Shown in pieces: positions 12,017-31,900 of a stretch of DNA of 35,314 nt. The stretch is from a virus, in IMG/VR virus record IMGVR_UViG_3300043579_000184, positions 1 to 35,314 of that record. One strand, given 5' to 3'. The notes beneath the pieces were generated by a model. It searched no databases. It was not told the origin of the DNA and saw only the letters and a list, made by a program, of their open reading frames with translations. Every line of letters begins with the position of its first letter. Positions within the stretch are counted from its first letter, which is position 1. The position numbers were made by a program, and so were the translations under genes.

Positions 12017-12204
12017 TGGACCGCTACGAGCGGATCCTGAGCGACCCCGAGGCGCTCATCGCCGAGGTCCGTCGGCTGGGGCAGCGCCCCCATGTCATGA
12101 CGGACCCGGAGCTGTCGTTGATGCTCGGGCTGCTGGTCGGCCGGGTGCGCGAGCTGCAGGCACTGGTGGACGAGGTGTTCACGCCCCGTGACCCCCGACA
12201 TTGA
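11968..12204 (+). CDS. Hypothetical protein
   Basis: AAGGAGG SD before GTG 11968. Confidence 0.65.
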   Translation: MADPAVGHVVVEITGLMDRYERILSDPEALIAEVRRLGQRPHVMTDPELSLMLGLLVGRVRELQALVDEVFTPRDPRH

Positions 12205-12225
12205 TAAGCCCACCTGTGGTAGAAT
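12201..12225 (+). promoter_or_regulatory. Cassette promoter repeat, degenerate copy (no -35 at canonical spacing, no SD)
   Basis: AAGCCCACCTGTGG-TAGAAT with TGn extended -10; ATG 6 nt after the -10 suggests a leaderless mRNA. Confidence 0.65.
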
Positions 12226-12231
12226 AAGGCC

Positions 12232-12402
12232 ATGCATGAGCCTCTTCTTGCCTATTACGAGCGGCTGCTGGCCTACCGGCGGCTGATGTACGCGCTGGCC
12301 ACGCATCCGACGCTCAAGGCCGACTGGGCCCGGGAGATCCGGGCGGTCGAGCGGCTGCGGGACCGGGCGACGACACCCACGACGCGCCCGCTGGCGGCTT
12401 GA
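12232..12402 (+). CDS. Small hypothetical protein (56 aa, MHEPLLAYYERLL...)
   Basis: Fills the gap between two repeats; stop is the TGA of TTGACA. Confidence 0.6.
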   Translation: MHEPLLAYYERLLAYRRLMYALATHPTLKADWAREIRAVERLRDRATTPTTRPLAA

Positions 12403-12438
12403 CACTAAGCCCGCTCTGTGGCATCATGTCTGTGGAGG
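12399..12438 (+). promoter_or_regulatory. 40-bp cassette promoter/SD repeat
   Basis: TTGACA-ctaagcccgctctgtgg-CATCAT-gtctgt-GGAGG. Confidence 0.85.
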
Positions 12439-12442
12439 ACAG

Positions 12443-12679
12443 ATGACCGCACTGGTGACCGACCTCAGAACCCGCGTCAAGGACGTGCAACGGCTCAGCG
12501 GGCACGCGCAAGAGGCGCTCTCGCCCAAGGCCCCGGGCGGCGGCACCAAGGTGATCAACCTTGCGGACGTGATGACCTACTTGCTGACCATCAGCGACGT
12601 GGTCGCCGAGGCCCGACTCGCTATCGAGGACGCCGCCAAGGCGGCCGGGGCGCGCGAGCGGACGGCGCGGCGCGGATGA
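12443..12679 (+). CDS. Hypothetical protein
   Basis: Starts at the repeat SD. Confidence 0.75.
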   Translation: MTALVTDLRTRVKDVQRLSGHAQEALSPKAPGGGTKVINLADVMTYLLTISDVVAEARLAIEDAAKAAGARERTARRG

Positions 12680-12879
12680 AGCGGGCGGGCCGGATCCACC
12701 TGCGCGCCGACGACCCGGCGCTCGTCGCGCTCCGGGAGGCCGCCGTCGTCTGGGCGCGGGCCTCACGGGACGAGCCCGTCGATAGCCGGGACAGTGTCTT
12801 CCAGATCATCGACCGGCGGCTCCAGCGGGCGGCGCTCCGGTTTGCTAGAGCCTCCAGCCCGCCGAGGACCAAGACATGA
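12676..12879 (+). CDS. Hypothetical protein
   Basis: ATGA overlaps at both ends. Confidence 0.6.
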   Translation: MKRAGRIHLRADDPALVALREAAVVWARASRDEPVDSRDSVFQIIDRRLQRAALRFARASSPPRTKT

Positions 12880-13103
12880 ACGACGAACTGGAAGCCCTGC
12901 GGCGCGAGAAGCTGGTCGAAGTGAACACCGGCCCCGTCCCTGACGGCCCGACGTGGACGACCGAGCAGCTCACCGAGGCGTTCGCGGTCGAGGGCTTTCT
13001 AGCCCCCTACGTGGTGGTCCGTCGCCGGAGCGACGGCAAGCGCGGGACACTCCTCTTCAAACATTCACCTCGGGTGTATTTTGACTTCCAGCCGGAGGCA
13101 TGA
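12876..13103 (+). CDS. Hypothetical protein (GFLAPYVVVRR..DG..G.L.F.HSPR.YF pattern)
   Basis: ATGA overlaps; globular beta-rich pattern. Confidence 0.75.
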   Translation: MNDELEALRREKLVEVNTGPVPDGPTWTTEQLTEAFAVEGFLAPYVVVRRRSDGKRGTLLFKHSPRVYFDFQPEA

Positions 13104-13342
13104 TGCCGTGCGACCGTTGTAAGCTCCCCTACCCGGAGGGCCTGCTGAACCCGGTGAGTTTCGGCAATCACACGGGGGCCGGGCGAACGCTGCCGGTGTG
13201 CGGCATCTGCGCGTTGGACCTCTCCAACGAGATCCTCAAGACGCGACGTAAAGCGTTCGGCGGCTCGATGGCCGAAGAGTACCGGCAGCGGGCGATCCGC
13301 TGGCGCGAGCGGCACCCGGACGCCCAGCCGGTGAAAGCGTGA
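13100..13342 (+). CDS. Small zinc-finger protein
   Basis: GGAGG SD; CDRC...CGIC. Confidence 0.7.
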   Translation: MMPCDRCKLPYPEGLLNPVSFGNHTGAGRTLPVCGICALDLSNEILKTRRKAFGGSMAEEYRQRAIRWRERHPDAQPVKA

Positions 13343-13647
13343 GCCCGCGCGTCTGCCCGGCTTGCAAGGGCCGGGCGACCAAGATCGTCAGCCTGAGCGA
13401 CGGCACCTACACCTGTCAGCAGTGCGGGCACCGGTATGACCCGCTGCAGGAGGCCCCCATGGGACTGGTTCTGACCTTCTACGCGCTGGTCGATGCGCGC
13501 GGCCACCTGTTCGACTGCGGGGCGGGCCCGGGCCGCGCCACGCTCTTCACCAGTCCCGAAGACATCGAGCCGACGCGGCGGATGATCGCGCGGCTGGACC
13601 CGAAGGTCCGGATCATCCCGGTCCGGGTGACCGAGGAGCAGTCATGA
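13339..13647 (+). CDS. Zinc-ribbon protein (possible internal start at MGLVL)
   Basis: CPAC...CQQC; internal AGGAGG SD before an internal ATG. Confidence 0.6.
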   Translation: MSPRVCPACKGRATKIVSLSDGTYTCQQCGHRYDPLQEAPMGLVLTFYALVDARGHLFDCGAGPGRATLFTSPEDIEPTRRMIARLDPKVRIIPVRVTEEQS

Positions 13648-13895
13648 CGCCTGACGAACGCGACCGGCTCGGGATTGTGGCGCAGTCGATGTGGGGCGGG
13701 TTCTTCCGCTGCCCCACGACGGGCCGGGTTATCGAGGCGCTCCATGGGGACGACAAGGTGCTCTGCCCCTGCGGGGTCAGTAACCCGAGGGTGCCGACCG
13801 AGCAGACCCATCTGACCGGGGTGCATATCGTCCGGTTCCTCACCGAGGCCACGGTAGACGAGTATCTCGACCAGCGGGAGGCTGACGAACGATGA
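13644..13895 (+). CDS. Hypothetical protein
   Basis: GAGGAG SD; ATGA overlaps. Confidence 0.7.
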   Translation: MTPDERDRLGIVAQSMWGGFFRCPTTGRVIEALHGDDKVLCPCGVSNPRVPTEQTHLTGVHIVRFLTEATVDEYLDQREADER

Positions 13896-14047
13896 CGACA
13901 CCCGTCGTCGTGCTGCGCTGTCCGGCCTGCGCCGCCGTCCTCGCCATGACCGAGCCGACCTACCGCGACTGGATCGCCGAGGTCGCCCAGCTCCGCTGCG
14001 GCCTTTGTCCGGACGAGCCGGGCCTCCAACCCACCCAACCAGCTTGA
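13892..14047 (+). CDS. Small zinc-finger protein (51 aa)
   Basis: CPAC...CGLC; GGAGG SD; stop is the TGA of TTGACA. Confidence 0.65.
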   Translation: MTTPVVVLRCPACAAVLAMTEPTYRDWIAEVAQLRCGLCPDEPGLQPTQPA

Positions 14048-14083
14048 CATCTGGGCCCACCAGCGGTATTATGTAGCTGGAGG
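14044..14083 (+). promoter_or_regulatory. 40-bp cassette promoter/SD repeat
   Basis: TTGACA-tctgggcccaccagcgg-TATTAT-gtagct-GGAGG. Confidence 0.9.
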
Positions 14084-14089
14084 TACGAG

Positions 14090-14254
14090 ATGGCCCGCAC
14101 GGTTCGCAAGCCCATCCGCAAGTTCTGGCGCAAGGAAGCCACCGGCTTTCGCCGCGCCAGCGTCCGCCGCCACCGCAAGGCCGCGAACGCCGCGACCCGC
14201 GCCGGGCGCGAGCTGCCCTCCTTCAAAGGCACTGGAGGCCGACTCACATGGTAA
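14090..14254 (+). CDS. Small Arg/Lys-rich protein (54 aa, MARTVRKPIRKFWRK...)
   Basis: Starts at the repeat SD; very basic; below the ORF-track length cutoff. Confidence 0.7.
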   Translation: MARTVRKPIRKFWRKEATGFRRASVRRHRKAANAATRAGRELPSFKGTGGRLTW

Positions 14255-14511
14255 GTCCCGCGACCCCGACCCCCCTGACCCCCGAGCTGATGGAAGCGTT
14301 CATGAGCATCCTGAACGCGCTCAGCCCGGAGAACCTGATGATGGACGGCGAGCGCCCGATGGCAGCGGCCAAGCGAGTCGCCAAAGCGCTCCGGGCCCGC
14401 TGGAAGGCGCTCGAAAAGACCCTCGGCCGCCCGGTGACCGAGGACGAAGTCTGGGCGATGTTTCTGACGACGCCCCGCACCCCGATTGGGATGCGGAGCA
14501 CCTTTCGATGA
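14248..14511 (+). CDS. Hypothetical phage protein (LSPENLxxDGE motif)
   Basis: GGAGG SD. Confidence 0.7.
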   Translation: MVSPATPTPLTPELMEAFMSILNALSPENLMMDGERPMAAAKRVAKALRARWKALEKTLGRPVTEDEVWAMFLTTPRTPIGMRSTFR

Positions 14512-14521
14512 GGAGGAGCTG

Positions 14522-14797
14522 ATGGCCTGCATGTGCGGAGATACCCACTGCGGAAGCTGCGGTCCGGCGCAAGGCAACAGCACGTGCCCGATGTGCGGGG
14601 CGTGGAGGGACGACGGCTGCGAGCACTACGACGACGAGACCGGCGAGGTCAAGCCGGAGTTTACAGCGGCTGCAGCCGCAGCCTACGAGGCTGACCGGCT
14701 GGCGGCCGAGGCCGAGGCCGCGCACGGGGCCGAAGCCGAGCGGCTGGCCGAGGAGTACTGGAAGTCGCTGGATGACGACGGGAAGCCGCGCGTATGA
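14522..14797 (+). CDS. Cys-rich acidic protein
   Basis: GAGGAG SD; CMCGDTHCGSCG...CPMC. Confidence 0.7.
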   Translation: MACMCGDTHCGSCGPAQGNSTCPMCGAWRDDGCEHYDDETGEVKPEFTAAAAAAYEADRLAAEAEAAHGAEAERLAEEYWKSLDDDGKPRV

Positions 14798-14991
14798 GCC
14801 GCTACGCCCTGCCCATCGGTGACTACAGCCCGGTCCGGTCGCCTGACTGGCGCGTCGAACCGTGGTCCGCCACGTGCTGGTCTGTCGAGCACTGGAACGG
14901 CGTGACGTGGGAGACCATCGAGAATTTCACGACGCCTCGCGAGGCGTGGGACTTTCTGTACGAGTGCGTTCGCGGCGGGAGGACGACATGA
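14794..14991 (+). CDS. Hypothetical Trp-rich protein
   Basis: ATGA overlaps. Confidence 0.6.
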   Translation: MSRYALPIGDYSPVRSPDWRVEPWSATCWSVEHWNGVTWETIENFTTPREAWDFLYECVRGGRTT

Positions 14992-15185
14992 GCGACTGCA
15001 CCTGCCCCTCGAAGCCGTCGTGGGGCCTCTGGCCCTACATGTACCCGCCCGACGCGCCGCACCCGGTGCAGTACTTCGCGCAGGTCGTGTCGGGCTGCGG
15101 CGTGACCATCCGGTGGAGCTGCCGCCACCGGCACCCGGACCGTGACACGGCGCTCGACTGCGCCAGAAAGCATCTCGATGGCTAA
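14988..15185 (+). CDS. Small Cys/His protein (CxHxH...AxxCA)
   Basis: GGAGG SD; ATGA overlap. Confidence 0.65.
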   Translation: MSDCTCPSKPSWGLWPYMYPPDAPHPVQYFAQVVSGCGVTIRWSCRHRHPDRDTALDCARKHLDG

Positions 15186-15438
15186 GCCTGACCGCAAGAC
15201 CCGCAATCGCATCAAGCGCGCGGTGCTCGACGCCGCCGACAACCGCCCGTCCCTGTCGGAGTTTCTGGTCCGCCTGACCGGCGTGCACCCGGACCTCGAC
15301 GCGGCGCTAGAGGGCATCTACACGGGACGGGAAGGCCGGGTGGCCGAGCCCGTGGCCGACTGGAACTGCAGCCTCGTCTTCGGCTGGGCGAGCACGGAAA
15401 CCCGTAAGTTTGTCATCGAATACGCTTATCTGGCCTGA
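15178..15438 (+). CDS. Hypothetical protein
   Basis: Overlaps the previous gene; stop lies in the next repeat. Confidence 0.65.
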   Translation: MAKPDRKTRNRIKRAVLDAADNRPSLSEFLVRLTGVHPDLDAALEGIYTGREGRVAEPVADWNCSLVFGWASTETRKFVIEYAYLA

Positions 15439-15471
15439 ATAGGCCCACCTGTGGTATTATGATGGTGGAGG
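15432..15471 (+). promoter_or_regulatory. 40-bp cassette promoter/SD repeat (degenerate -35, extended -10)
   Basis: aggcccacctgtgg-TATTAT-gatggt-GGAGG. Confidence 0.8.
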
Positions 15472-15480
15472 TAGTGAAGG

Positions 15481-15699
15481 ATGAGTGACCCACGGTGGTT
15501 CTGGCTCGCGGTCTTCACCGACGGCGGCACCGCGACGTTCTACGCGGACAGTAAAGCACTGGCGTTCGACCACGCAGGGACGCTGGCGCGCGACTTCGCG
15601 CGGCGCGGCGTCCGGACGGTGACGCGGCTCAAGCATTCCAAAGACGTGACGCCCGGCGAGAACGCGGCCGCAGGCATCCTGCACGAGGAGACCAGATGA
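15481..15699 (+). CDS. Hypothetical protein
   Basis: Starts after the repeat SD. Confidence 0.7.
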   Translation: MSDPRWFWLAVFTDGGTATFYADSKALAFDHAGTLARDFARRGVRTVTRLKHSKDVTPGENAAAGILHEETR

Positions 15700-16037
15700 G
15701 CACACTCGACTGGAACGTCGGCGACGTGAACGGCACCTGCCTGCGCGGGTTTCTCGACCTGATGGATAACGACTTCGACCGGACGGTCGAACGGCTCAAG
15801 GCGCTCGGCGCGGAGGACGACGGCCCCGGCGACAAGACCACGGTGGAGTTTCGCGGCCGCTTCAACGGCGCGGTCTTCACACTCTACGACTACTACGGGA
15901 GCCGCAGCGGCCTGCACATCGGCGGGTTCGCGCCCTACGACGGTCCCCTGCCGGTTGATGTCGAGGGCCTCAAGGCGCACCTTGCCGAGTGGTTCAAGCT
16001 GCCCGGCGTGACGGCACGGCCGGGAGCCCCGTCATGA
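15696..16037 (+). CDS. Hypothetical phage protein (DK..VEF...FTLYDY...HIGG pattern)
   Basis: GAGGAG SD; ATGA overlaps. Confidence 0.75.
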   Translation: MSTLDWNVGDVNGTCLRGFLDLMDNDFDRTVERLKALGAEDDGPGDKTTVEFRGRFNGAVFTLYDYYGSRSGLHIGGFAPYDGPLPVDVEGLKAHLAEWFKLPGVTARPGAPS

Positions 16038-16204
16038 CCCGCTGGGTGGTCTATCATTCGGCCGACTGGGTCGGGCTGGTCGAAACCGGCTGGGTCACGG
16101 TCAGCGTCACCCCGTGCCTGACGTGGGGCGGACGCCCCTCGGAGACCGACGGGATCCCGGGCCCCTTCGCCCTGATGGCCACCGGCCGGGGCTGGACGAG
16201 CTGA
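16034..16204 (+). CDS. Small hypothetical protein
   Basis: ATGA and TGATG coupling. Confidence 0.55.
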   Translation: MTRWVVYHSADWVGLVETGWVTVSVTPCLTWGGRPSETDGIPGPFALMATGRGWTS

Positions 16205-16473
16205 TGTTCACCGACGCACTGCTGCCAGACCGTCGCGTCATGACCTTCACCGAGTACGTGCTGCCCGACGGGAGGACCGTGCGGGTCGATGCGACCGCCG
16301 CCAAGGGGCTCTCGGTCATCGACTTCACACTGGTCGGCGGCCGGATCGTCAACGCGATCCGCGCCGATCTGGTCTTCGTCTGCCCCCGCTGCAAGTCCCT
16401 CTCGCACAACCGCAACGACATCCGCGAGCGCTATTGCGGATCCTGTCACTGCTTCACCGCCGACCCAGCTTGA
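16204..16473 (+). CDS. Zinc-finger protein (CPRC...YCGSCH)
   Basis: TGATG coupling; stop is the TGA of TTGACA. Confidence 0.7.
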   Translation: MFTDALLPDRRVMTFTEYVLPDGRTVRVDATAAKGLSVIDFTLVGGRIVNAIRADLVFVCPRCKSLSHNRNDIRERYCGSCHCFTADPA

Positions 16474-16509
16474 CATTTAAGCCCACCGGTGGTAATATGC
16501 TGGTGGAGG
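16470..16509 (+). promoter_or_regulatory. 40-bp cassette promoter/SD repeat
   Basis: TTGACA-tttaagcccaccggtgg-TAATAT-gctggt-GGAGG; perfect CCACCGGTGG palindrome. Confidence 0.9.
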
Positions 16510-16515
16510 TAACGG

Positions 16516-16917
16516 ATGGCGAAAGCGACAGGACCGAGCAAGGCCGTGCTGGCCGACCTGATGCGCGCGGCGCACGCAGCGGGGATGGCGGCGGGAGCGG
16601 CGGCGGTGCCGCCGGTGATGATTGTCCGGCGACACGAGAACCCGTTGGACGACAGCTCGCCGGTAGCGAACGAATGGATTGTGCCCGACGGACCTTGCGG
16701 ATTTGCTTGGGTCACGATTCGCCCGGCGAACAGCCGAGCGGCGCGGGTGATGGCCGAGGAGCTGGGCGCGCGGACCAACAGCTACGAGGGCGGGATGATG
16801 CTCTGGGTGAGCGCATTCAACCAAAGCATGGCGCGGAAGGAAGCCTACGCGGCGGCCTTCGCGGAGGTGCTGCGGGCGGAAGGCATCCGGGCCTACGCCG
16901 GGTCACGGATGGACTGA
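16516..16917 (+). CDS. Conserved hypothetical phage protein (CGFAWV...QS..RKEAYA.AFA.VL...SRMD)
   Basis: Recognisable phage-family motif; starts at the repeat SD. Confidence 0.85.
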   Translation: MAKATGPSKAVLADLMRAAHAAGMAAGAAAVPPVMIVRRHENPLDDSSPVANEWIVPDGPCGFAWVTIRPANSRAARVMAEELGARTNSYEGGMMLWVSAFNQSMARKEAYAAAFAEVLRAEGIRAYAGSRMD

Positions 16918-16981
16918 CCGGGGAGCGGGTGGAGCACACGGGGCCCGGCCTGAACGGGCCCCCCAAACGAAGGGAGAGCAG

Positions 16982-17557
16982 ATGGAACGCGGTGACCGAG
17001 TGCGTGTGACGAAGGGCAAGAACCGGGGCGTGACCGGCGAGGTCTTCTGGGTCGGCGAGACGAAGTGGGGCCCGCGCATCGGGATCGACACGGGCGGCGG
17101 CAACAAAATCTGGGCGAGGCCGACTGATGTCGCGCTGACCTCGACCGACGTGCTTCCAGCCCCGGCCGTCCCGCCCGTCGGCGGGCTGATGGCGCTGGCG
17201 GCGGCGCTCGACGGCACGGCGGCGGCTCCGGCCTTCACCCTGACGCTGCCCGACGGGATTCCGGCGGCGGCGGTCCCGGCGATGGTCGCGACGGTGTCGG
17301 ACAGCGCAGTGGCGGCCCTGACGGCACGAGTCACAGGGCTGGAACTGCTGGTGGCGAGCTTGATGGCCAAGGTGGCGGCGCTGGAGAGCGCCGCCCCGGG
17401 CGAGGAGTACATGGCGACGGCGCGCGGCCCTGTCAGCGACCGCAGCATGGGCACCGCTGCCGACTACGGGTCTCGCGGGGACGTGGTGGCGCTCAGCGTG
17501 GACCCCGGCACGCACTGCCACGACGGTCACGACGGACTCTTTGAGGAGGCTTCCTAA
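16982..17557 (+). CDS. KOW/SH3-like N-terminal domain protein
   Basis: GDRVRVTKGKNRGVTGEVFWVG; GGGAG SD. Confidence 0.7.
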   Translation: MERGDRVRVTKGKNRGVTGEVFWVGETKWGPRIGIDTGGGNKIWARPTDVALTSTDVLPAPAVPPVGGLMALAAALDGTAAAPAFTLTLPDGIPAAAVPAMVATVSDSAVAALTARVTGLELLVASLMAKVAALESAAPGEEYMATARGPVSDRSMGTAADYGSRGDVVALSVDPGTHCHDGHDGLFEEAS

Positions 17558-17558
17558 C

Positions 17559-17957
17559 ATGCGCGGACTGAGTGTGAGTGTGTATCGGGACACGGGACTA
17601 CCGGACTGCACCAACGGCGGGGTGACCTCGTCGATGTCGCGGTTCATCCTCTTCGGCGAGGGGATCGACGGGAACTGGTCGCCGGACGAGTCGGCGGTCC
17701 CCAAGATCCTGCTCCTGAAGCGTGACAAGGTCCACCTCGGGGGCTATCTCTACGCGGTCCCCGGCGTCGTAGACCCTGACTCGGGGAACGTCGTCCCCGC
17801 GCCTCTGCCGGAGGGCCACGTCGGCTGGATGATGGGCGGCAACTACGTCGGCACCTGCGATAGCCGGTTCTCGACCGGGGTGACCAGCCTCGGAGCCATC
17901 CCGGTCCACGACCGCTCGGAGAGCTACGAGCTGTATCGCACGTTGTCGTCGGACTAG
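17559..17957 (+). CDS. Conserved hypothetical phage protein (DCTNGG...GGNY...DSRF...HDR.E)
   Basis: GAGGAGG SD; recognisable motif pattern. Confidence 0.8.
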   Translation: MRGLSVSVYRDTGLPDCTNGGVTSSMSRFILFGEGIDGNWSPDESAVPKILLLKRDKVHLGGYLYAVPGVVDPDSGNVVPAPLPEGHVGWMMGGNYVGTCDSRFSTGVTSLGAIPVHDRSESYELYRTLSSD

Positions 17958-17958
17958 C

Positions 17959-17966
17959 TGTATAAC
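17959..17966 (+). promoter_or_regulatory. TGTATAAC motif, copy 2
   Basis: Intergenic, just upstream of AAGGAGG SD. Confidence 0.5.
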
Positions 17967-17984
17967 CCTGAAGGAGGAACCCCC

Positions 17985-18476
17985 GTGCGTTGTGACCAGT
18001 GCTCGAAGTTCGTGAGTTTCGATACCGACCGTGAGCCCGAGGATCTCAGCCTCGATGTGACCGACGACGGGTCGGTGAGCGGCTCGGTCCGCATCGTCAA
18101 CGCCTGCGCGGACTGCGGGCAGGACTTGACCGAGGCCAACCTCGAAGTCGAGATGGATCTGAGCGGCGAGGTCGAAGAGCACCGCGAGGATATGAAGAAG
18201 GCGCACGACGAGGAGCAGGCCGCCAAGCCCGAGGACGAGCGCGAGCCGTACGACGAGGCTACGCACGACATGCTGTCGATCAGCAGCTCCGAGGCCGTCC
18301 GCTCCGACCGCCGTCAGACCCACGCGCGCAACGGCAAGCTGATTAGTAACCCGCGCTACCAGCGCCAGTACTACGGCGCGGAAGTCACGGTGGGCATCGA
18401 GTGCAAGTGCGGCGAGACCTTCGAGCGCACCGAAGTCTTCGAGGAACAGGCCAGCGCGATGGAGTCGCTGGTGTGA
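17985..18476 (+). CDS. Acidic zinc-binding protein
   Basis: AAGGAGG SD; CDQC, CADC, CKC; D/E-rich. Confidence 0.8.
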   Translation: MRCDQCSKFVSFDTDREPEDLSLDVTDDGSVSGSVRIVNACADCGQDLTEANLEVEMDLSGEVEEHREDMKKAHDEEQAAKPEDEREPYDEATHDMLSISSSEAVRSDRRQTHARNGKLISNPRYQRQYYGAEVTVGIECKCGETFERTEVFEEQASAMESLV

Positions 18477-18637
18477 GTGGGCCCAACCTCCAGAAGCGGT
18501 ACTCCTACGTTGTGTCGCTCCTGCTGCGCGCCCAGTACCTGATGGGCAATGACTGGCCCGAGTCCGCGCAGTTGCTCGAACGGCTCCTTGACAAGCTGGC
18601 GGAGGAGTCCTCGCCAGCGAAAGCCCTGCCGGGATGA
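18473..18637 (+). CDS. Small hypothetical protein
   Basis: GTGA overlap; GGAG SD. Confidence 0.55.
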   Translation: MSGPNLQKRYSYVVSLLLRAQYLMGNDWPESAQLLERLLDKLAEESSPAKALPG

Positions 18638-18639
18638 CA

Positions 18640-18816
18640 ACCGGCTAGTCGGGAGACCCCACTCCGACGATGTGAAGCGGGTTTGTTTCCGCAGACAAAG
18701 GCCGACCCGGAGGGTTGAGTTTCCGGAGTAACAAACCGGCGCGAGAAGGGCGCGACAGGCCGGGCGGGGGAGGTGTCACCAGCACCGGTGATCCCGTCCG
18801 GCCACCTTCGCTTTTT
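18640..18816 (+). ncRNA. Putative multi-stem structured RNA of unknown class
   Basis: ORF-free gap with stems GGTTTGTT/AACAAACC, GGCCGGGCGGG/CCCGTCCGGCC and TCACC/GGTGA, closing pair AAGCG/CGCTT, and a T-run. Confidence 0.5.
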
Positions 18817-18818
18817 GC

Positions 18819-18904
18819 GGGGCCTGAAGAGAAACACGGTATCCAGCCCGTCAATCGCCTGCTGAGGCAGGAGTTCCGGGTGCAAATCCCGGCAGGCTCC
18901 ACCA
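18819..18904 (+). ncRNA. tRNA-like / tmRNA-TLD-like RNA with encoded CCA and G3:U pair; no canonical anticodon arm
   Basis: Acceptor GGGGCCTG/CAGGCTCC plus ACCA; T-arm CCGGG-TGCAAAT-CCCGG. Confidence 0.7.
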
Positions 18905-18912
18905 TCCATACC

Positions 18913-18952
18913 TTGACATCTGGGCCCACCAGCGGTATCATATAGCTGGAGG
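18913..18952 (+). promoter_or_regulatory. 40-bp cassette promoter/SD repeat
   Basis: TTGACA-tctgggcccaccagcgg-TATCAT-atagct-GGAGG; 38/40 identical to the 14044 copy. Confidence 0.9.
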
Positions 18953-18956
18953 ACAG

Positions 18957-19370
18957 ATGACAGCAACCCCAGCAGCGTTCACCCGGGCGGGCCGCAACGG
19001 CCGCAGCCACGTCACCTACACGCCGACCACCGTGCTCGGCGACACGCACACCCACCTGAAGATCGATATTTACTACTCCAAGGGCGGCACCAACGTCTGG
19101 CACGGTACGACCGAGCCGCGCGGCTACTGGTTGAGCCTCGGGGCGGTCGAGGTCCGCGAGAACAGCATCATCGAGACCCTGTCGCTCAGGAGCGACGGCT
19201 TCGGGAAGCGCATCTTCCTGAAGGGCGCGGCCAGCTTCAGCGCGAAGCGCTTCGCGGAGGTCGTGATGATGGTGCGAACCGCCGAGGCCGAGCTGGTCCG
19301 GCTGGCGCTGGTCCGCGACTACTCCAACGTGTCGAAGGTGGCCAAGGAAGCCCTCGGCATCGCAGCTTGA
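18957..19370 (+). CDS. Hypothetical phage protein (YYSKGG.N...EPRGYWL)
   Basis: Single-gene cassette between two repeats; stop is the TGA of TTGACA. Confidence 0.85.
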   Translation: MTATPAAFTRAGRNGRSHVTYTPTTVLGDTHTHLKIDIYYSKGGTNVWHGTTEPRGYWLSLGAVEVRENSIIETLSLRSDGFGKRIFLKGAASFSAKRFAEVVMMVRTAEAELVRLALVRDYSNVSKVAKEALGIAA

Positions 19371-19406
19371 CAATTAAGCCCACCTGTGGCACCATAGTGG
19401 TGGAGG
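19367..19406 (+). promoter_or_regulatory. 40-bp cassette promoter/SD repeat
   Basis: TTGACA-attaagcccacctgtgg-CACCAT-agtggt-GGAGG. Confidence 0.85.
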
Positions 19407-19414
19407 TAGACAGG

Positions 19415-19591
19415 ATGGCGAAGTTCTCGACGGTCCCGGTGCTCTTCCCGACGCCGTTCGCGGTGCTGGCCAAGGTGCTCGCGGCCAAGGCCAGCGGGGC
19501 CCCGAAGACAGAACTGGCGGCGCTCGACGCCGCGTTCAAGGTGGCGGTCCTCCTGACCGCCAAGTCCCCGGCCCTGAAGGAGGCCGCGTAA
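19415..19591 (+). CDS. Small Ala-rich hypothetical protein
   Basis: Starts at the repeat SD. Confidence 0.7.
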   Translation: MAKFSTVPVLFPTPFAVLAKVLAAKASGAPKTELAALDAAFKVAVLLTAKSPALKEAA

Positions 19592-19914
19592 TGCCTAAAG
19601 CCTACGGCAATCTCATCAACCGTGTCATCGAAGACAGCGCCAGCCCGGCCCCGGCCGTCGGGATGGGTGCCACGATTCTCTGGTGGTCGGACCGGACGCC
19701 CGCGACGGTGACCAAGGTCAGCCCGAGCGGCAAGACCGTCACCCTCACCGAGGACCGGATCACTGGCTGGGAGAACCACTACGGCACCAGCTTCGCGCCG
19801 AACCCGAACGGCCGGGTCTTCGTCGCGCGCAAGAACCGGTACGGCCGGTGGAAGACGGCGGGGAACGGCGTCACGCTGGGCTCCCGCGCCGCCTATCGCG
19901 ACCCGAGCTTCTGA
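19591..19914 (+). CDS. Conserved hypothetical phage protein (VGMGAT..WSDR.P.TV)
   Basis: AAGGAGG SD; TAATG coupling. Confidence 0.8.
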   Translation: MPKAYGNLINRVIEDSASPAPAVGMGATILWWSDRTPATVTKVSPSGKTVTLTEDRITGWENHYGTSFAPNPNGRVFVARKNRYGRWKTAGNGVTLGSRAAYRDPSF

Positions 19915-19916
19915 CC

Positions 19917-20267
19917 ATGCCCTACTACCCCACGATTGCGGAAGACCTCGCCCGGGCGAAGCGGATTCTCGCCGACGGCAAGCCGCAGGAAGCCGACCTT
20001 GCCGACTTCGACGGCCTGCCGCCGCAAGTGAAGCAGTGCTTGGCGGCGGGCGGCACCATCTTCGGCGCGGACATCTACGCGGCCTACAAGCTGCTAGAGA
20101 GCCTCGTCGCCGAGGTCGAGCGGCTCCACCCCCTGCTGGCCGAAGTGCGGGAGCAGTACGACCGGCACCAGCGGCAGTACGAGTCGGCGGGCGGGAACCC
20201 ACGCACGCGCAAAGGGAACCTGATGTGTCACCTGCCGTACGCGCTGCTCCTGAAGCTCTTCCCTTGA
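19917..20267 (+). CDS. Hypothetical protein
   Basis: Starts 2 nt after the previous stop; stop lies in the -35 TTGACT. Confidence 0.7.
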   Translation: MPYYPTIAEDLARAKRILADGKPQEADLADFDGLPPQVKQCLAAGGTIFGADIYAAYKLLESLVAEVERLHPLLAEVREQYDRHQRQYESAGGNPRTRKGNLMCHLPYALLLKLFP

Positions 20268-20303
20268 CTTCTGAGCCCACCTGTGGCATCATGATGGTGG
20301 AGG
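20264..20303 (+). promoter_or_regulatory. 40-bp cassette promoter/SD repeat
   Basis: TTGACT-tctgagcccacctgtgg-CATCAT-gatggt-GGAGG. Confidence 0.85.
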
Positions 20304-20309
20304 GAAGCA

Positions 20310-20507
20310 ATGGCGGGTCGATACAGTTTCGAGTTGGCGGCACGGGCCACGGCGGCGTCAGCGGCGCTGAGAGCGCCGGGGGCGGCGGAGGCCAGTCTCG
20401 CCGCCACGCGGGTGGAAGTGGTGCGGATGGCTGCGATACGGGCAGCGGCGGACGCCCGGTTGGCGGCGAAGGCAGCGGCGAGAGCCGCCGCGAAGGAGGC
20501 AGCGTGA
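20310..20507 (+). CDS. Small Ala/Arg-rich helical protein
   Basis: Starts at the repeat SD. Confidence 0.65.
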   Translation: MAGRYSFELAARATAASAALRAPGAAEASLAATRVEVVRMAAIRAAADARLAAKAAARAAAKEAA

Positions 20508-20734
20508 CAGACAAGGCAGCGATACTGGCGACGGTTCGCGCGGGCGACCGGGTGACCATGCTGGTGCCGAACGGCATCGGGCGGAACGGCGTCGAGTGGA
20601 AGGCGGTCACCGGCCGCGCGGTCATGCCGAGCGCACACGGCGGCTGGGTGCTGAATCTCGGCGGCCGGTTCGGGACGCCGGGGGTGGTGGACGACAGCAA
20701 CTTCGTGAAGGTCGTGAAGCGGGCCAAGCGATGA
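20504..20734 (+). CDS. Small SH3-like hypothetical protein
   Basis: AAGGAGG SD; GTGA overlap. Confidence 0.7.
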   Translation: MTDKAAILATVRAGDRVTMLVPNGIGRNGVEWKAVTGRAVMPSAHGGWVLNLGGRFGTPGVVDDSNFVKVVKRAKR

Positions 20735-20946
20735 CGCTCCCCGACCTTATCCGGGTGCGCCTGACGACGATTGACCACTACGCGGAGTCCCGCCGGTTCA
20801 AGACGCTGGACGGGGCCCGCAAGTATGCCCGGCGGAAGCTCGGCGACACCTTCGACATCGGTCTCCACTACGCGGTCGATGCCTACGGGTGCGTGAAGCT
20901 CGAAGCGAACATTCCGATAGCCCTGCTGATGGGGAGGGAGGCGTGA
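20731..20946 (+). CDS. Hypothetical protein (FKTLDGARKYA)
   Basis: ATGA overlap. Confidence 0.7.
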   Translation: MTLPDLIRVRLTTIDHYAESRRFKTLDGARKYARRKLGDTFDIGLHYAVDAYGCVKLEANIPIALLMGREA

Positions 20947-21122
20947 TGGAACTACGTGACGTGACGCTCGGGATGCGCGTGGCGATCCACCCGGCGACGA
21001 GTCTCTGGATGCGCGGCGTGCGCTTCGCCGACGTGGTGAAGATCGGTCGCAAGACCGTGACGGTCGAGGCGGCGGGCCTCAAGGTGCGCGTCCACCCCTC
21101 GAATCTGGAGCCCGTTGTATAA
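20946..21122 (+). CDS. Small SH3-like protein (HPAT.LWMRG)
   Basis: GGAGG SD; TGATG coupling. Confidence 0.7.
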   Translation: MELRDVTLGMRVAIHPATSLWMRGVRFADVVKIGRKTVTVEAAGLKVRVHPSNLEPVV

Positions 21123-21123
21123 C
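21116..21123 (+). promoter_or_regulatory. TGTATAAC motif, copy 3
   Basis: Overlaps the upstream TAA stop; 6 nt before ATG 21130. Confidence 0.45.
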
Positions 21124-21129
21124 GAAGGG

Positions 21130-21330
21130 ATGCAGTGCACCTTCTACGTGCTGAGCGCGGATGACCCGCTCTTCCTGCTGGACCTGCCGTCGCTGCCGCC
21201 GCGCGGGCAGATCGTCCGGTTCGCCAACCGCTTCTGGACCGTCGAGGAGACCGAGCTGCGCGTGGCCCCCGGCACCCAACGCCCGGACCCGCAGGGGATC
21301 GTCTGGCTGCAGGAACGCCTGACCCACTGA
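21130..21330 (+). CDS. Small hypothetical protein
   Basis: ATG 21130 in ORF 21115-21330. Confidence 0.6.
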   Translation: MQCTFYVLSADDPLFLLDLPSLPPRGQIVRFANRFWTVEETELRVAPGTQRPDPQGIVWLQERLTH

Positions 21331-21335
21331 ACCCA

Positions 21336-21512
21336 ATGCGGCACGTCCTCTGCGGCGAGCCGGTCGTGTGTCGCCGCCAACCCCTGACGGCGGATCCCGA
21401 CGAGCGGCTGGTCGAGATGATCCCCTACTGCGCGTGGTGCGATCTGGATGTCCCGGCCGATGGACTGGCCGAAGACGAGCCCACCGCTGGACAACAAGTC
21501 ATAGGTCAGTAA
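21336..21512 (+). CDS. Small Cys-containing protein (58 aa)
   Basis: HxxC...CAWC; fills the gap. Confidence 0.5.
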   Translation: MRHVLCGEPVVCRRQPLTADPDERLVEMIPYCAWCDLDVPADGLAEDEPTAGQQVIGQ

Positions 21513-21545: not shown

Positions 21546-22049
21546 ATGTCAGCCACCCAGCAGCGACGACCCCGGAAGAAAGCAACTGAGGCCACCCTTG
21601 GGCGGCCCGTGCAGGTGAGCGGGTTCTACCGTCTCATGTTGCACGACGTGCGGAATGGGCAGAAGGTCTACACCCCGTGGCGCAAGAACGTCATCACCGC
21701 CGACGGCTTCCAGTCCTACATTGTCCAGTCCATCGGCAGCGGCCTGACCGGCAAGACCGTCAGCCACATGCAGCTCGCCAGCCAGACGGCGGCCCCGGTC
21801 AGCAGCCAGACCTCGGCGAGCGGCGAGTTCGAGGCCCGCAAGGCCGTCTCCAACAGCTTCGTTGCCAACGGCACGCTCCGCGCGACCGCGAGCTGGAACA
21901 CCAACGAGGCCACGCAGTCCGCCGTCGGGGCGGTGGCGCTTTACAACACCAGCTCCGCCGGGACGGCGGGCTCGATTGCCACCTTCACCGCGAGCACCAA
22001 GACGACGGACCAGACTTTGAACGTGACGTATGAATGGAGGTTCAGTTGA
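21546..22049 (+). CDS. Virion structural protein (tail/baseplate-associated beta domain)
   Basis: KNVIT..G...ATASW..NEA...VALYN...TKTTDQTLNVTYEW pattern typical of tail-associated proteins; S/T-rich; GAGG SD. Confidence 0.7.
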   Translation: MSATQQRRPRKKATEATLGRPVQVSGFYRLMLHDVRNGQKVYTPWRKNVITADGFQSYIVQSIGSGLTGKTVSHMQLASQTAAPVSSQTSASGEFEARKAVSNSFVANGTLRATASWNTNEATQSAVGAVALYNTSSAGTAGSIATFTASTKTTDQTLNVTYEWRFS

Positions 22050-26486: not shown

Positions 26487-27002
26487 ATGCCCGACACCAA
26501 GCTCGCGGACCTCACCGCTATCGTCACGCCTAGTGACGATGACCTGTTCTACCTGACCAACCCCGGCGGGTCGCCCGTCGATACGAAGATGACGCTGGCC
26601 CAACTGCGGGCCTTCCTCGGGACATGGATCTCGGTCAGCCTCGGCGGCAGCCGCGCGGCGAGCCTGCCGCTGGCGGCCGCGACCTACGACCTCGTGAACG
26701 CCGAGCCCGCGTTCACGGTGCCGACGCTCAGCGCCGCCATGCTGGCCACGGCCCGCATTGTCGCGGACTGCCGGAGCGCGGACTCCAGCGTCAGCATCAC
26801 CCCCAGACTCATCAATGTGTCGTCCTTGGCGGTGGCGGGGACCGGGGCGGCCTGTACGGCCAGTGCGGATGACTACACGGGGACCAACCAGCACCAGACG
26901 GTCGCGGTCACCGTGGTGAGCGGGCAGACCTACAAAGCCCAAGCGATTGTCTCGGCGGGGGTGCACGCCACGTTCTGCACGATTCGGTTGGAGATCGGCT
27001 AA
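26487..27002 (+). CDS. Virion structural protein
   Basis: MPDTKLADLTA...DDDLFY...TKMTLAQL N-terminus typical of tail/decoration proteins; beta-rich. Confidence 0.7.
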   Translation: MPDTKLADLTAIVTPSDDDLFYLTNPGGSPVDTKMTLAQLRAFLGTWISVSLGGSRAASLPLAAATYDLVNAEPAFTVPTLSAAMLATARIVADCRSADSSVSITPRLINVSSLAVAGTGAACTASADDYTGTNQHQTVAVTVVSGQTYKAQAIVSAGVHATFCTIRLEIG

Positions 27003-28408
27003 TGCCTACCAATGTCCTCCGGGTGAACACGAACAACTGGATCGTGACCGGCGCGGGCGACCCGGAAGGGCGGGAACGCGCGCCGGTCGGGAGCATCTAC
27101 CTGCGGGAGGACGGCGCGGGTGGGACCAGCCTCTACGTCAAGGAGACCGGCGGGGTCGGCTACATCGGGTGGAAAGCCATGGCGATTCCTGCGGGCGGGC
27201 AGGCTCCAGTGGCGCACGCGGCGTCACATGGCTCCGGTGGCGCTGACCCGATCACGGGGCCGCTGACGTTGAGCACGCCCTACCCGCAGATCCGGCTGAA
27301 CGCCGCGATCCCGATGGTGCAGTGGCAGGAGGTCGGTGCGTCGGCGGACAAGAAGCGCTGGCGCATGTTTGCGAGCGGGGAGGTCTTCCGCTTCGACTGT
27401 CTGAACGACGCGGAGAACGCGGTCACCATCACGCTCCTGACGGTGGCCCGGGACGGCGCGGTCAATCTGCTGGGGGCCCTGACGGTCAACGGCCTCGTGA
27501 CCGCGCCGGGCTACATCGCGCAGGGGGCCGGGGTGGGCATCACGATTCTCGACACCGCCGCCCCGGCGGATGCGAAGCGCTGGCAACTCGCGACCTATAA
27601 CAACGGGCAGTTGTATCTCGAAACGCTGAATGATGCGCTGAACGCCTATCAGGGACGTGTCATCTTCGACCGAGCCGGGGGGATCACGGCTGGGAAGATT
27701 GTCACGGGTGTCGCGGGGAATAACCTTGCTGACCTGACGGTGGGGGCGACCAACTTCACGGCGGGCATCTACATGACCGCCGGGAATCTGAATCTAGGAC
27801 CGGGGAGTCTCGTGGGCGGCGGGTTTCTGCAGCCCAATGGTTATATCTATCCGGGCCAGTACAACAACGGAGGGGCACAGGCGAATTGGTATCTGGCGGG
27901 GCATGGGAGCTACGGCCTCTACTGCAACACAGGCATCTACATTGCGGCTCATCTGTGGACTGGGCTGAACCTGTACGTGGGTGGGTCTGGTGATGTAGGC
28001 ACGTCGCTCAACGTCGGGACCACGATCCGCGCGGGCAGCGGCGTCTACGAACGCGGGCGCGGGCAGGCGATGGGTGACTGGGTGGACGAGGCGTTCAACG
28101 CCGGTCGCTACGGCTTCACCTGCTACGCGGCGGAAGCGGCCTACATGCAGATCGGCGGCACGGTCTTTCAGAACATCAACATCACGTCGGCCACGGTGCC
28201 GTCGGCGTCGGCGTACAACATCTACACGTCGTTCAACGCCGTGCGGAACACGCACGCCAGCGCGCATGTGATTGTGGCGGGCGGCTACCAGCCCTCCTCG
28301 GTGTTTTCACTGGCCGGGACCAACGTCGTGCAGATTCGACAGACGAGCGGATTGAACTACCCCGCAGGCAACATGACCTGCCAGTTTACGGTGCCCATCA
28401 GCGTGTGA
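27002..28408 (+). CDS. Tail fibre / receptor-binding protein
   Basis: GAGDPEG...APVGSIYLR.DG..GTSLYVKE.G...GW motif, HAASH.SGGADP, duplicated AD.KRW...LNDA.N segment, Gly-rich beta shaft. Confidence 0.8.
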   Translation: MPTNVLRVNTNNWIVTGAGDPEGRERAPVGSIYLREDGAGGTSLYVKETGGVGYIGWKAMAIPAGGQAPVAHAASHGSGGADPITGPLTLSTPYPQIRLNAAIPMVQWQEVGASADKKRWRMFASGEVFRFDCLNDAENAVTITLLTVARDGAVNLLGALTVNGLVTAPGYIAQGAGVGITILDTAAPADAKRWQLATYNNGQLYLETLNDALNAYQGRVIFDRAGGITAGKIVTGVAGNNLADLTVGATNFTAGIYMTAGNLNLGPGSLVGGGFLQPNGYIYPGQYNNGGAQANWYLAGHGSYGLYCNTGIYIAAHLWTGLNLYVGGSGDVGTSLNVGTTIRAGSGVYERGRGQAMGDWVDEAFNAGRYGFTCYAAEAAYMQIGGTVFQNINITSATVPSASAYNIYTSFNAVRNTHASAHVIVAGGYQPSSVFSLAGTNVVQIRQTSGLNYPAGNMTCQFTVPISV

Positions 28409-28961: not shown

Positions 28962-31900
28962 GTGGCTCAGGTCCGCTGGTATCTCAATAACACGACGATT
29001 GACGGGTGGCAGCTCCTTGACCAGAGCGCTGCCACGGCTGCCACGCTCCCGAACGGATGGGTGGTCGGCACCGGCGCGACATTCAGTTCTGAACTGGCGT
29101 CTGGTGCAGCGGGTGACCGCGCGTCCACGACGTTCACGGCCAACACCGTCCCTGACGGCACCCTCGACACCACCCTGAAGGATGCCTGTCGGTCACAGTT
29201 CGCGTGGACGGGGAACTTCGCGGCCGGGAACTGGACGTTTCAGTTCGCGGTGGTGTCCACGGTGCAGTCGGGGGCCGCTGACGGGCAGATTGTCTTTCGC
29301 GTCCTGAAGGCCAATGCCGACGGCTCGGGGGCGACCGAGATTACGACGGGCCAGCAAGCGACCACGGTCGCCACGAACGTCGCGGGCACGGACGTAAACA
29401 TCACCGCGACATGGGCGGCCCCGGCGTGGTCGATCACCAACCAGTACATTTTCGTTCAACTCGCGTGGAAGCGGACCGGTGCGGGTGGCATGACCACCAC
29501 CAACATCCGGCTCCGCACCGGCAGCAGTACGACCGTGGGCACCACGGGGCTGACGGCGAACTTCACCGAGTCCCTCCTGACAGCGTCGGTCTTCGAGACC
29601 GTCGCGGTTAGTGAGTTCCGGAAGGCGGTCCTCCCGCAGCTCACGGCAGTCGAGGTCGAGACGGTCAGCGTCACGGAGCTTCGCAAGCCGGTCCTCCGTC
29701 AGCTCGCGGTCCACGCCGCCGACAGCGTCGGTGTGAGTGACAGTGCCTCAGTGACTACGGCAGGTGGTGGGGGCGGGCCTGCCGTGATCACGCTCGTCAC
29801 GTCGGGACACGCGCATGGTAACAGCGGCGCGTTCGTCACCGGTCTCGACATGACGGGCGTGGACCTGATCGTCCTCGTGGCTGCGCGCTACGACAGCGGC
29901 CCGGCCTACGCCATCAGTGATAGCGAGAGCAACACCTACGTCCCCGGCACGGCGCAGAACAACAGCTCGGCGTTCACGCAGGTCCGTGCGTTCTATGCGT
30001 GGAACCCGACCGTCAGCGCGTCGATGGACTTCTCGCACCCCGGCGCAGTCAACTACGCCACGCTGGTCGTGCTCGGGTTTGCGGGGGTGGATCGTCTGGC
30101 CGATCCGCTGGTGACGCAGTCTGGCCTCGGTAGCTACTCGGCGGCCAACGGTCCTGTGGCGGTCGGCTCTATCGCGTCCTTGGCCGCTGGCGATCTGCTG
30201 GTGTCGGGCGTCGGGCAGTATCCGGATCGGCCGACCAACTGGACTACGGTCACGTTGCCCACGTCGGTGCTCGCCGAAATTGACGTGGGCACGGCGGGTG
30301 CGACCTTCGGCGCGTCAGCGGCCTATCACGTCAATGCGACCGGCAGTGCCGAGTCCTCGCTGACGCCGACGTGGACACCGGACCCCGTCGGGGCGAGTGA
30401 TGTCTACATCGCGGGCGTCGTGCTGACGTTCCGCGCCGCCGTCGGAGCCCCGCCGGGGGGACTCACGGTCACCGTCGCCGAGACTATCGGCGTCACCGAG
30501 AGTGCGTCAGCGGTCCCGGCTGACAGTGCGCCTCCCGCGCTTGAAGACATCGTCTTCGACTCGGCCAGCACCGGTGGCACCAACGGCGGTACCGGCTCAC
30601 TGACGTTTGCGTTCAATAACGTCGCTGGTGACCTCGTGGTGGTCGGCATCCGTCGGGCGAATGCATATGACCTCACGACGGTGACGTACGGTGGCGTAGC
30701 GATGACGCTCGCCGCTGCAGAGACTTTCGCTTCGTCACTGGTGAAGACCTATCTGTACTACCTCGCGGCTCCTCCGACTGGCACGAACAACGTCGTCGTG
30801 AACGCCAGTACCAACCAGTTGATGCATGGCGTAGCGGTTTCGTATAGGAAAGTTGACCAAAGCGACCCACTCGACGCGCTTGGCCTTGACAGGTTAACCG
30901 GCACGTCGCTGACCCTCGGCACGACGACCTCACTTGATAAGTGCTGGGCGGTTGCCGTCGCGACGAACCTGTCCGGTATTACCCCCAGTGCCGGGGCCGG
31001 AACGACGCAACGCGCGGTCGATAGCAGCGGGCAGGTGTCGTTGTACGACGGCAACGCGGCGGTCTCCCCTCCCGGCGCAACGAGTCTGGAAGTTCAATTC
31101 AGTGCGTCCGGTGCTGTTGCTGGGGTGCTCGCGACGTTCATCCCAGCCGTGGCGAGCGTGCTGCTGCTCGACACCGGCTCACGGCTACTGCTGGACGCGG
31201 GCGGTCGATTGCTGCTTGCTGGAGTCGCCGCCCCGCCGGGTCCACCGCTGACCATCACGGTGGCTGACACGGTCACGGTCAGTGACCCCGTCAGTGTGGA
31301 CTTCGTCGCCGCCTCGACCGGCGGGCTCTCCATCGAGTACGACTTCACCACCGAGTCGGATGTCATCCCGCTGCCGGACCCGCCATGGCAGGCGGTGGTC
31401 GGGCAACTGAAGAACGCCAGCGGGCAGGCCACGCCGGTGGCGTTTGGGGGCATTCAGGCGGTTCGCTGGAATCCCAGCACCAATACGTTCGACCAAGACC
31501 AGTTCATGGAACTGCTGGTCGGCGCGGGCTCCGCCACCGCTGGCTACCAGCAGTTCCTCTTCGTCCGTGGGTCAGGCACGGACGCCACCTCGTTTCACGG
31601 GTATGTCCTGTACTGGGGTGATGGCTACGGGGGAGCCATCACGATTGGCCGCATCGAGAGTGGCGGGTTCGCCGTTCTGCAGGTCTGCACCGGCTCCGCC
31701 GAAGTCGGCAAGTGGCTGCGGCTGGAAGTCGAGGGCACGGTCCTCCGGGCCTACAAGGAAGGCGCACTCATCGGCTCCGCCGCGACGACGGGCACGTCTT
31801 ACACGGGTCAGCCCGGGTTCGGCGGCTACTACGTCGGCTACGACAACACCGACACGGTGCGTCTGGGCGAGCTAGGGGCCCCGGCCGCCGTGCCGTCGGT

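Follow-up and report, generated by a model that had tools for sequence, protein, structure and literature searches.

The stretch of DNA analysed here, referred to as the window, is 35,314 nucleotides long and comprises bases 1–35,314 of IMGVR_UViG_3300043579_000184, an IMG/VR virus record of 129,940 bp with 67% GC that is rated 100% complete by CheckV. It derives from an uncultured phage of about 130 kb, which recurs in soil and sediment metagenomes, and the stretch is present in 24 public sequencing runs. Encoded in the first 9 kb of the window are two helicases, of the SNF2 and DnaB types, and a DNA polymerase of family A (PolA). Next comes an array of small open reading frames (ORFs), which is partitioned by a 40-bp repeat with the features of a promoter and a Shine-Dalgarno (SD) sequence. 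In an initial annotation, this repeat, which we refer to as the unit in the following, was proposed to delimit exchangeable gene cassettes in an integrase-free, integron-like system. In this study, we describe the array, the anatomy and genome-wide distribution of the unit, and its fate in related phages. We consider it likely that the units all belong to a single family of strong promoters of the host type (sigma-70/SigA), spread over the entire phage genome, and that the array is simply the region in which they are found at the highest density.

The small-gene array

The features of the array are listed in Table 1. Its ORFs are mutually unrelated, as described initially, since a comparison among themselves yielded no paralogs. 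Of the 30 products that were looked up, 29 are also known from the protein collection, where the genes had been called independently, and the search of Pfam and PHROG assigned almost no function to them, zinc-ribbon hints apart. Two of them have distant homologues that are scattered over phages of unrelated hosts. In their GC content at third codon positions (GC3), the array ORFs match the other small genes (0.869 vs 0.870). The units divide them into blocks of one to seven ORFs, a slightly wider range than the one to six originally counted.

Between 9 and 24 kb of the window, neither a tRNA nor an Rfam family was detected, and the 275-nt non-coding gap inside the array had no match in ARAGORN and Rfam. 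Terminator-like sites in the same interval are found at chance level (6 found, 5.9 expected). This argues for units that serve as repeated internal promoters of one co-directional run, and against insulators of cassettes.

Anatomy and genome-wide distribution of the unit

The consensus of the unit is TTGACA-N5-GCCCACCTGYGG-TATCAT-N6-GGAGG; the two hexamers are separated by 17 bp, and the -10 element is extended by TGn. Its geometry had been described as invariant, and this holds for all seven full copies of the array, in which the spacer length is constant and GGAGG occupies unit positions 36–40; a repeat search groups these copies as one family (D11). The near-identity of two copies could likewise be reproduced, the pair being 14044 and 18913. 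The copy at 15432 departs from the proposed consensus in the -35 hexamer, and the copy at 12399 in the core (Table 1). In a 40-column weight matrix trained on the strong copies, the 12-bp spacer block GCCCACCTGYGG is conserved as strongly as both hexamers, and the suggestion that the conserved spacer serves as an operator appears plausible from the sequence.

In the genome of 129,940 bp, this matrix finds 26 sites with scores above 14, compared with a best score of 8.2 in 20 shuffled genomes. The eight sites of the array, that is, the seven full units and the one at 12201, are all present where they had been reported, and no shuffled genome scores comparably. Overall, the genome carries 26–28 copies, which are found on both strands and are each oriented towards the adjacent downstream gene. 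The repeat is thus not the array-specific system that it was taken for, and the array between 12 and 21.5 kb is merely the densest cluster of units in the phage. In the window, an 18-nt core pattern has 11 matches, while 1.5 are expected.

The units are closely fitted to the genes on both sides. In 11 of the 26 units, among them five of the array's seven full units, the co-directional upstream gene ends in the unit, its stop codon being the TGA within TTGACA; for most of the array cases, the protein collection has the same ORF as an independent call. On the other side, a start codon follows 4–10 nt past GGAGG in 19 of 26 units. Among 28 core matches, GGAGG lies exactly 7 nt after the -10 hexamer in 18, and an ATG or GTG is found at that very position in six others. 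As either GGAGG or a start codon occurs at one fixed distance, transcription likely starts 7 nt after the -10 hexamer, and the mRNAs would accordingly open either with the SD sequence or with the start codon itself. The six units of this second, leaderless type open ORFs of 56–475 amino acids (aa), three of which coincide with independent gene calls. The site at 12201, which had been considered a partial unit, belongs to this type and is complete.

Judged by these features, the unit is a sigma-70/SigA-type promoter with an SD sequence where the mRNA is predicted to begin. Its original description as a promoter with an SD sequence that heads co-directional small ORFs is supported by the sequence. 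In Mycobacterium smegmatis, an ANNNT motif is found at -13 to -6 and 24% of the transcripts are leaderless (PMC6448022), a pattern with which the leaderless and start geometry of the units agrees. Given that leaderless starts and ANNNT are typical of mycobacteria, and given the protein matches, the host of the phage appears to be an actinobacterium. No close relative was found among cultured phages, the best DnaB matches (to Microbacterium, Mycobacterium and Gordonia phages) reaching only 24–26% identity. The spacer core GCCCACCTGTGG is also found outside this setting, in identical form, before TATACT in one sigma-70-type promoter of the viral contigs L148 and L161 (33–34% GC), which may be due to chance or to a common preference of host polymerases.

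Some of the units are more similar to each other than their shared consensus would entail. Five unit pairs are identical at 37 or more of the 40 positions, compared with 0.13 pairs expected after shuffling of the columns (P < 0.0005), and the resulting subfamilies have deviations from the consensus in common, such as TTGACT with CATCAT. Nearly identical copies of a subfamily (38–39 of 40 positions) can lie on either strand and as far as 70 kb from each other; their flanks are unrelated, and their identity ends sharply at the unit edges. These sharp-edged subfamilies suggest that units copy or convert one another.

Table 1. Units, ORF runs and non-coding gap of the array, and leaderless-type units across the genome (window and genome positions coincide)
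Feature	Position	Strand	Description
Variant unit (leaderless type)	12197–12234	+	core GCCCACCTGTGG, -10 TAGAAT, 6 nt, ATG of 56-aa gene at 12232; no consensus -35
Unit with degenerate, shifted core	12399–12438	+	core GCCCGCTCTGTGG; -10 CATCAT, GGAGG; upstream TGA in TTGACA
Full unit	14044–14083	+	38/40 identical to 18913; upstream stop in -35 box
Unit without -35 hexamer	15432–15471	+	GGCCTG instead; core, -10 and GGAGG intact
Full unit	16470–16509	+	-10 TAATAT; upstream stop in -35 box
Full unit	18913–18952	+	275-nt non-coding gap just upstream
Full unit	19367–19406	+	upstream stop in -35 box; 37/40 identical to minus-strand unit at genome 95399
Full unit, TTGACT/CATCAT subfamily	20264–20303	+	38–39/40 identical to genome 40605 and 90261; Logan contigs break here
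About 33 small ORFs (51–191 aa)	12232–21512	+	co-directional, eight runs, 90% coding
ORF runs	12232–12402, 12443–14047, 14090–15438, 15481–16473, 16516–18637, 18957–19370, 19415–20267, 20310–21512	+	
Non-coding gap, 275 nt	18638–18912	+	inside array
Leaderless-type units	window 12208–12234; genome 37945, 39585, 71981, 88163 (-), 128563 (-)		core and -10, 6 nt, then ATG/GTG

Comparison with related phages

Related sequences were sought in several collections. Searches of IMG/VR with PolA, a PolA alignment, the array protein 17985–18476 and the protein 27002–28408 found no relative covering the window; promoter-pattern scans of IMG/VR returned only the 22-kb contig L019 besides chance matches, and a scan of genome contigs returned ABC-ATPase coding sequences only. 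A metagenome scan provided contigs of a close relative, phage B, for genome positions 34–96 kb, a 2.6-kb contig (L112) and one distant contig of 1.3 kb (L108), and no contig for genome positions 1.3–34 kb. Contig L112 joins base 129,940 of the record to base 1, with an overlap of 156 nt, and the genome is therefore circular, or circularly permuted in the assembly, despite being recorded as linear. Three further contigs of relatives, of 67,656 bp (PolA 98%), 64,933 bp and 44,163 bp (PolA 66%), could be seen through their proteins alone.

These comparisons bear on the likeliest alternative to a plain promoter family. The units could, in addition to driving transcription, be preferred sites of homologous recombination via the phage RecA, similar to the promoter-early stem-loops (PeSLs) of T4-type phages. 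Blocks would then be excised, inserted and reordered at the units, and any gene placed next to a unit would gain a stop codon, a promoter and a ribosome-binding site. Several of the features described above fit this scenario: like a PeSL (PMC2839356), the unit reaches from the stop codon of the preceding gene to the SD sequence and start codon, near-identical subfamilies with sharp edges are found in unrelated flanks, and a RecA homologue is encoded by the phage itself (genome positions 47476–48234). On the other hand, the 40 bp of the unit fall short of the roughly 100 bp of homology offered by a PeSL.

An alignment with phage B and one contig of a further sample covers 42,152 columns with 97.35% identity and includes 15 units. 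Conservation and breakpoint positions, like the anatomy and the genome-wide distribution of the units, can be seen directly in the sequence. The compared genomes differ structurally at nine places, through six indels of 126–1,168 nt and three diverged patches. None of the nine differences has both ends in units, and one abuts the 3' edge of a unit; the remainder are located at plain gene junctions, in diverged patches or at a different repeat. For instance, whole small genes are inserted in phage B at plain gene junctions at genome positions 52520, 56572 and 57386. Synteny is kept across all 12 strong units that are comparable with the close relatives. Only two weak units, at 71970 and 72186, are missing in a relative, and both lie inside a 1,168-nt indel (genome 71338–72505 vs L019). 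As this indel ends in repeats of about 80 nt that encode a common N-terminal peptide tag, it was the tag repeats, not the promoter, that mediated the gene loss or gain, and the two weak units were lost as passengers.

The difference that abuts a unit is a 180-nt indel (genome 74486–74715 vs L019). It concerns a gene for a Cys-rich protein of 60 aa (74530–74709), which is present only in the genome studied here, where it directly follows unit 74486 and precedes the next gene. A direct repeat of about 20 nt, made up of SD sequence and start codon (GGAGGT..GTGAGCGAGA), flanks the inserted gene. Although such a case speaks for recombining joints, we estimate from gene calls and units that some 19% of the junctions between genes in the aligned 42 kb have a unit, and with about one junction in five carrying a unit, one difference in nine at a unit represents no enrichment. 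The units themselves are constrained: the 12 strong copies have accumulated 3 substitutions in 480 nt, compared with 12.7 expected from the divergence of 2.65% (Poisson P ~0.001).

For the array itself, the comparison with phage B consists of the orthologous proteins that were found, which are 82–100% and mostly 96–100% identical, and it does not allow absences to be read, as identical proteins share one database entry. The orthologue of 12443–12679 has an unrelated tail of 30 residues after about residue 70. This replacement, the only locatable difference of phage B in the array with respect to the units, therefore begins inside the gene, about 250 nt past unit 12399, and not at the unit. Furthermore, the orthologue of 16982–17557 has an in-frame deletion of 31 residues. 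The 44,163-bp relative keeps PolA and the gene at 21546, and no homologue of 18957 is among the proteins listed on its contig, which would fit an exchange of blocks at units. Array content thus appears to turn over at larger distances, like that of any accessory region.

The distant contig L108 (1,308 bp) fits both a promoter family and PeSL-like joints, as it carries two near-identical units with a 16-bp spacer, one of the SD type and one (copy 2) of the leaderless type, next to unrelated genes. A strong intrinsic terminator lies between these two units, unlike in the array of the window. Contigs from four runs of three campaigns are identical to the window (0 differences) and colinear across every unit except 20264. 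No repeat-joined deletion or circle is found in these contigs, which drop rare variants; the joints listed have sides of 20–33 nt and could be traced to near-identical copies at genome positions 40605, 90261 and 91294.

Taken together, we regard PeSL-like joints as an unlikely alternative to the promoter family. A more far-reaching version appears rather improbable, too: the unit might serve a lineage of high-GC phages as a portable joint of universal use, a minimal analogue of the PeSLs, which provides a stop codon upstream and a promoter with ribosome site or leaderless start downstream, so that RecA-mediated exchange or conversion could insert and shuffle small genes without terminators. 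The initial proposal that units delimit exchangeable cassettes does not agree with the synteny of relatives over 12 strong units, with the lack of any unit-to-unit difference among the nine, with the lack of an integrase, resolvase, RecT or ERF in the genome (see below) or with the uniform GC3, and it is weakly supported at best. The breakpoint alignment, which had been suggested as a check on it, finds breakpoints independent of the units in the 42 kb compared, outside the array.

Just downstream of the array, the gene at 21546–22049 has 85% identity in the relative with 66% PolA identity, a far higher degree of conservation than that of the neighbouring array genes; its product runs 18 residues beyond the stop codon of the window in two relatives. 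Further downstream, at 28962–34355 of the window, lies an ORF of 1,797 aa, which consists largely of 63-nt (21-residue) tandem repeats and has no match in Pfam. The assembly of a relative apparently breaks inside this ORF.

Function and evolution of the units

In the promoter family that we favour, the units most likely serve as early promoters, and the array would be an early region of small genes, of the 'hyperplastic' kind, that follows the replication genes. TTGACA, the 17-bp spacer and TATCAT with its TGn extension would recruit RNA polymerase, and the TGA in TTGACA would often terminate the upstream gene at the same time. The GCCCACCTGYGG block could be the site of a common regulator, by which all units would be switched together. 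With a start 7 nt after the -10 hexamer, the mRNA would open with GGAGG in the SD type and with the start codon in the leaderless type, and the units, as reiterated internal promoters, would keep expression high along the co-directional run of 9 kb. The start site, the existence of a regulator and the early expression are our inferences from the sequence. Over evolutionary time, the units would copy or convert one another, while the recent gain and loss of small genes would occur at gene junctions generally, without preference for units.

Several points weigh against this explanation. Pfam yielded no candidate for the regulator and gave no match for the genes next to divergent units at 35–37 kb. 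The 42 kb that could be aligned with relatives belong to other parts of the genome than the array. The sharp-edged subfamilies show that units recombine or spread, and a role as joints over longer times is possible. Finally, the phage's own sigma-70-family protein may read these promoters, a point to which we return below.

Conserved sequence around the -10 hexamer could also act at the level of RNA. In RNA that reads through a unit, CCACC and GGTGG would fold around the -10 region and thereby mask the SD sequence or mark a processing site, so that translation would mainly proceed from the short transcript of each gene. Every strong unit can indeed form such a hairpin, with a mean of -9.0 kcal/mol over 29 nt and stems of 8–9 bp in three copies, and read-through RNA must exist, given that terminators do not occur above chance. 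However, chimeras of 5' and 3' halves from different units fold nearly as well as the real units (-8.51 vs -9.03; permutation P = 0.056), covariation is not significant, and units of the leaderless type lack the 3' arm. We therefore find an RNA element very unlikely.

It is similarly hard to assign the units to the phage's own sigma factor, a Sigma70_r2 protein encoded at genome positions 43229–43783. If this protein instead of the primary sigma factor of the host read the units, they would be middle or late promoters with the spacer as part of the recognition sequence, which would account for the conservation of the 12-bp block at the level of the hexamers. TTGACA-17-TATCAT with TGn is, however, the consensus of primary sigma factors, the genes driven by the units are small ORFs of the kind typical of early regions, and the sigma gene is itself downstream of a unit (40605). 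We consider this highly improbable.

A dedicated integron-like system, which would capture genes at the repeats by site-specific recombination, has only the look of a small unrelated ORF array split by a fixed repeat in its favour, and it is hardly credible, and unsupported, given that the complete genome has no match to PF00589 (tyrosine recombinase) or PF00239 (serine recombinase), that searches of the genome for integrase, resolvase, RecT, ERF and WhiB found none, that the repeats are gene-oriented promoters genome-wide, also before genes of 207–475 aa, that every block starts with a promoter of its own, whereas the cassettes of integrons are promoterless and expressed from a single Pc promoter, and that no attC-like element was found at the 3' ends of the genes.

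Relation to known systems

Integrons and the array have in common that small unrelated genes are separated by a recurring short element. They differ in that neither an integrase nor attI or attC sites are found here, and in that the phage has a separate promoter for every block and carries the repeats on both strands throughout its genome. The stoperators of Cluster A mycobacteriophages, the sites bound by gp71 of phage L5, are repressor sites of a temperate phage and are separate from promoters. Like the units, they are many short, asymmetric, genome-wide sites that are oriented with transcription and allow a single protein to control many of them. In the phage described here, by contrast, the conserved block lies inside the promoter spacer, and neither a repressor nor an integrase was found. 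In halovirus HF2, short intergenic repeat classes likewise carry promoter motifs within a virus genome; these are AT-rich archaeal motifs of an archaeal virus, with no relation to the units in sequence or architecture (PMC8707807).

Closer in appearance are the start-associated sequences (SAS/ESAS) of Cluster K mycobacteriophages (Pope et al., 2011; PMC3203893). They, too, are asymmetric, SD-containing repeats of one orientation that are found a few bases before the start codons of unrelated non-structural genes, sometimes with an upstream stop codon. The SAS is, however, a 13-bp translation-associated motif without promoter hexamers (PMC3203893), whereas the unit comprises a whole promoter, and the SAS consensus GGGATAGGAGCCC, located 3–7 bp before starts, has no match in the window at up to two mismatches.

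The closest counterparts are the PeSLs, which adjoin 10 of the 14 differential genes in the T4-type phages RB49 and phi1 (Arbiol et al., 2010; PMC2839356). The comparison with them, already drawn in the initial annotation, is apt: PeSLs are repeated intergenic promoters of sigma-70 consensus, concentrated in a region of small ORFans, and likewise extend from an upstream stop codon to the SD sequence and start codon of the next gene (PMC2839356), with the stop codon located in TTGACA in 11 units here. In both systems, the copies evolve as a family. The units differ from PeSLs in their length (40 bp vs about 100 bp), in the GC-rich coding DNA that runs into the -35 box in place of the AT-rich upstream tract of PeSLs, and in the lack of a terminator or attenuator stem-loop, there being only the 5-bp CCACC/GGTGG pairing without a U tract. 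They also differ in that the upstream stop lies inside the -35 box and in the existence of both SD and leaderless versions. Moreover, differential genes are mostly found away from units here (one or two of nine, with the array outside the comparison), compared with 10 of 14 for PeSLs, and there is no evidence for mini-circles in the contigs of four runs, from which rare variants are dropped.

For an uncultured phage of 130 kb, this analysis maps one class of promoters, and with it the likely transcription units, almost completely. It also provides a cautionary case, as a repeat-partitioned array may resemble a cassette system, yet the available relatives turn over their genes at ordinary junctions. 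A promoter-repeat element of this kind is already known in other phages; new here are the lack of terminators above chance, the stop codon in the -35 box and the leaderless twin of the same geometry. With the stop in its -35 box, an SD sequence that is predicted to open the mRNA and its leaderless twin, the unit is an unusually compact regulatory part, which could be tested as a promoter and ribosome-binding module for high-GC bacteria.

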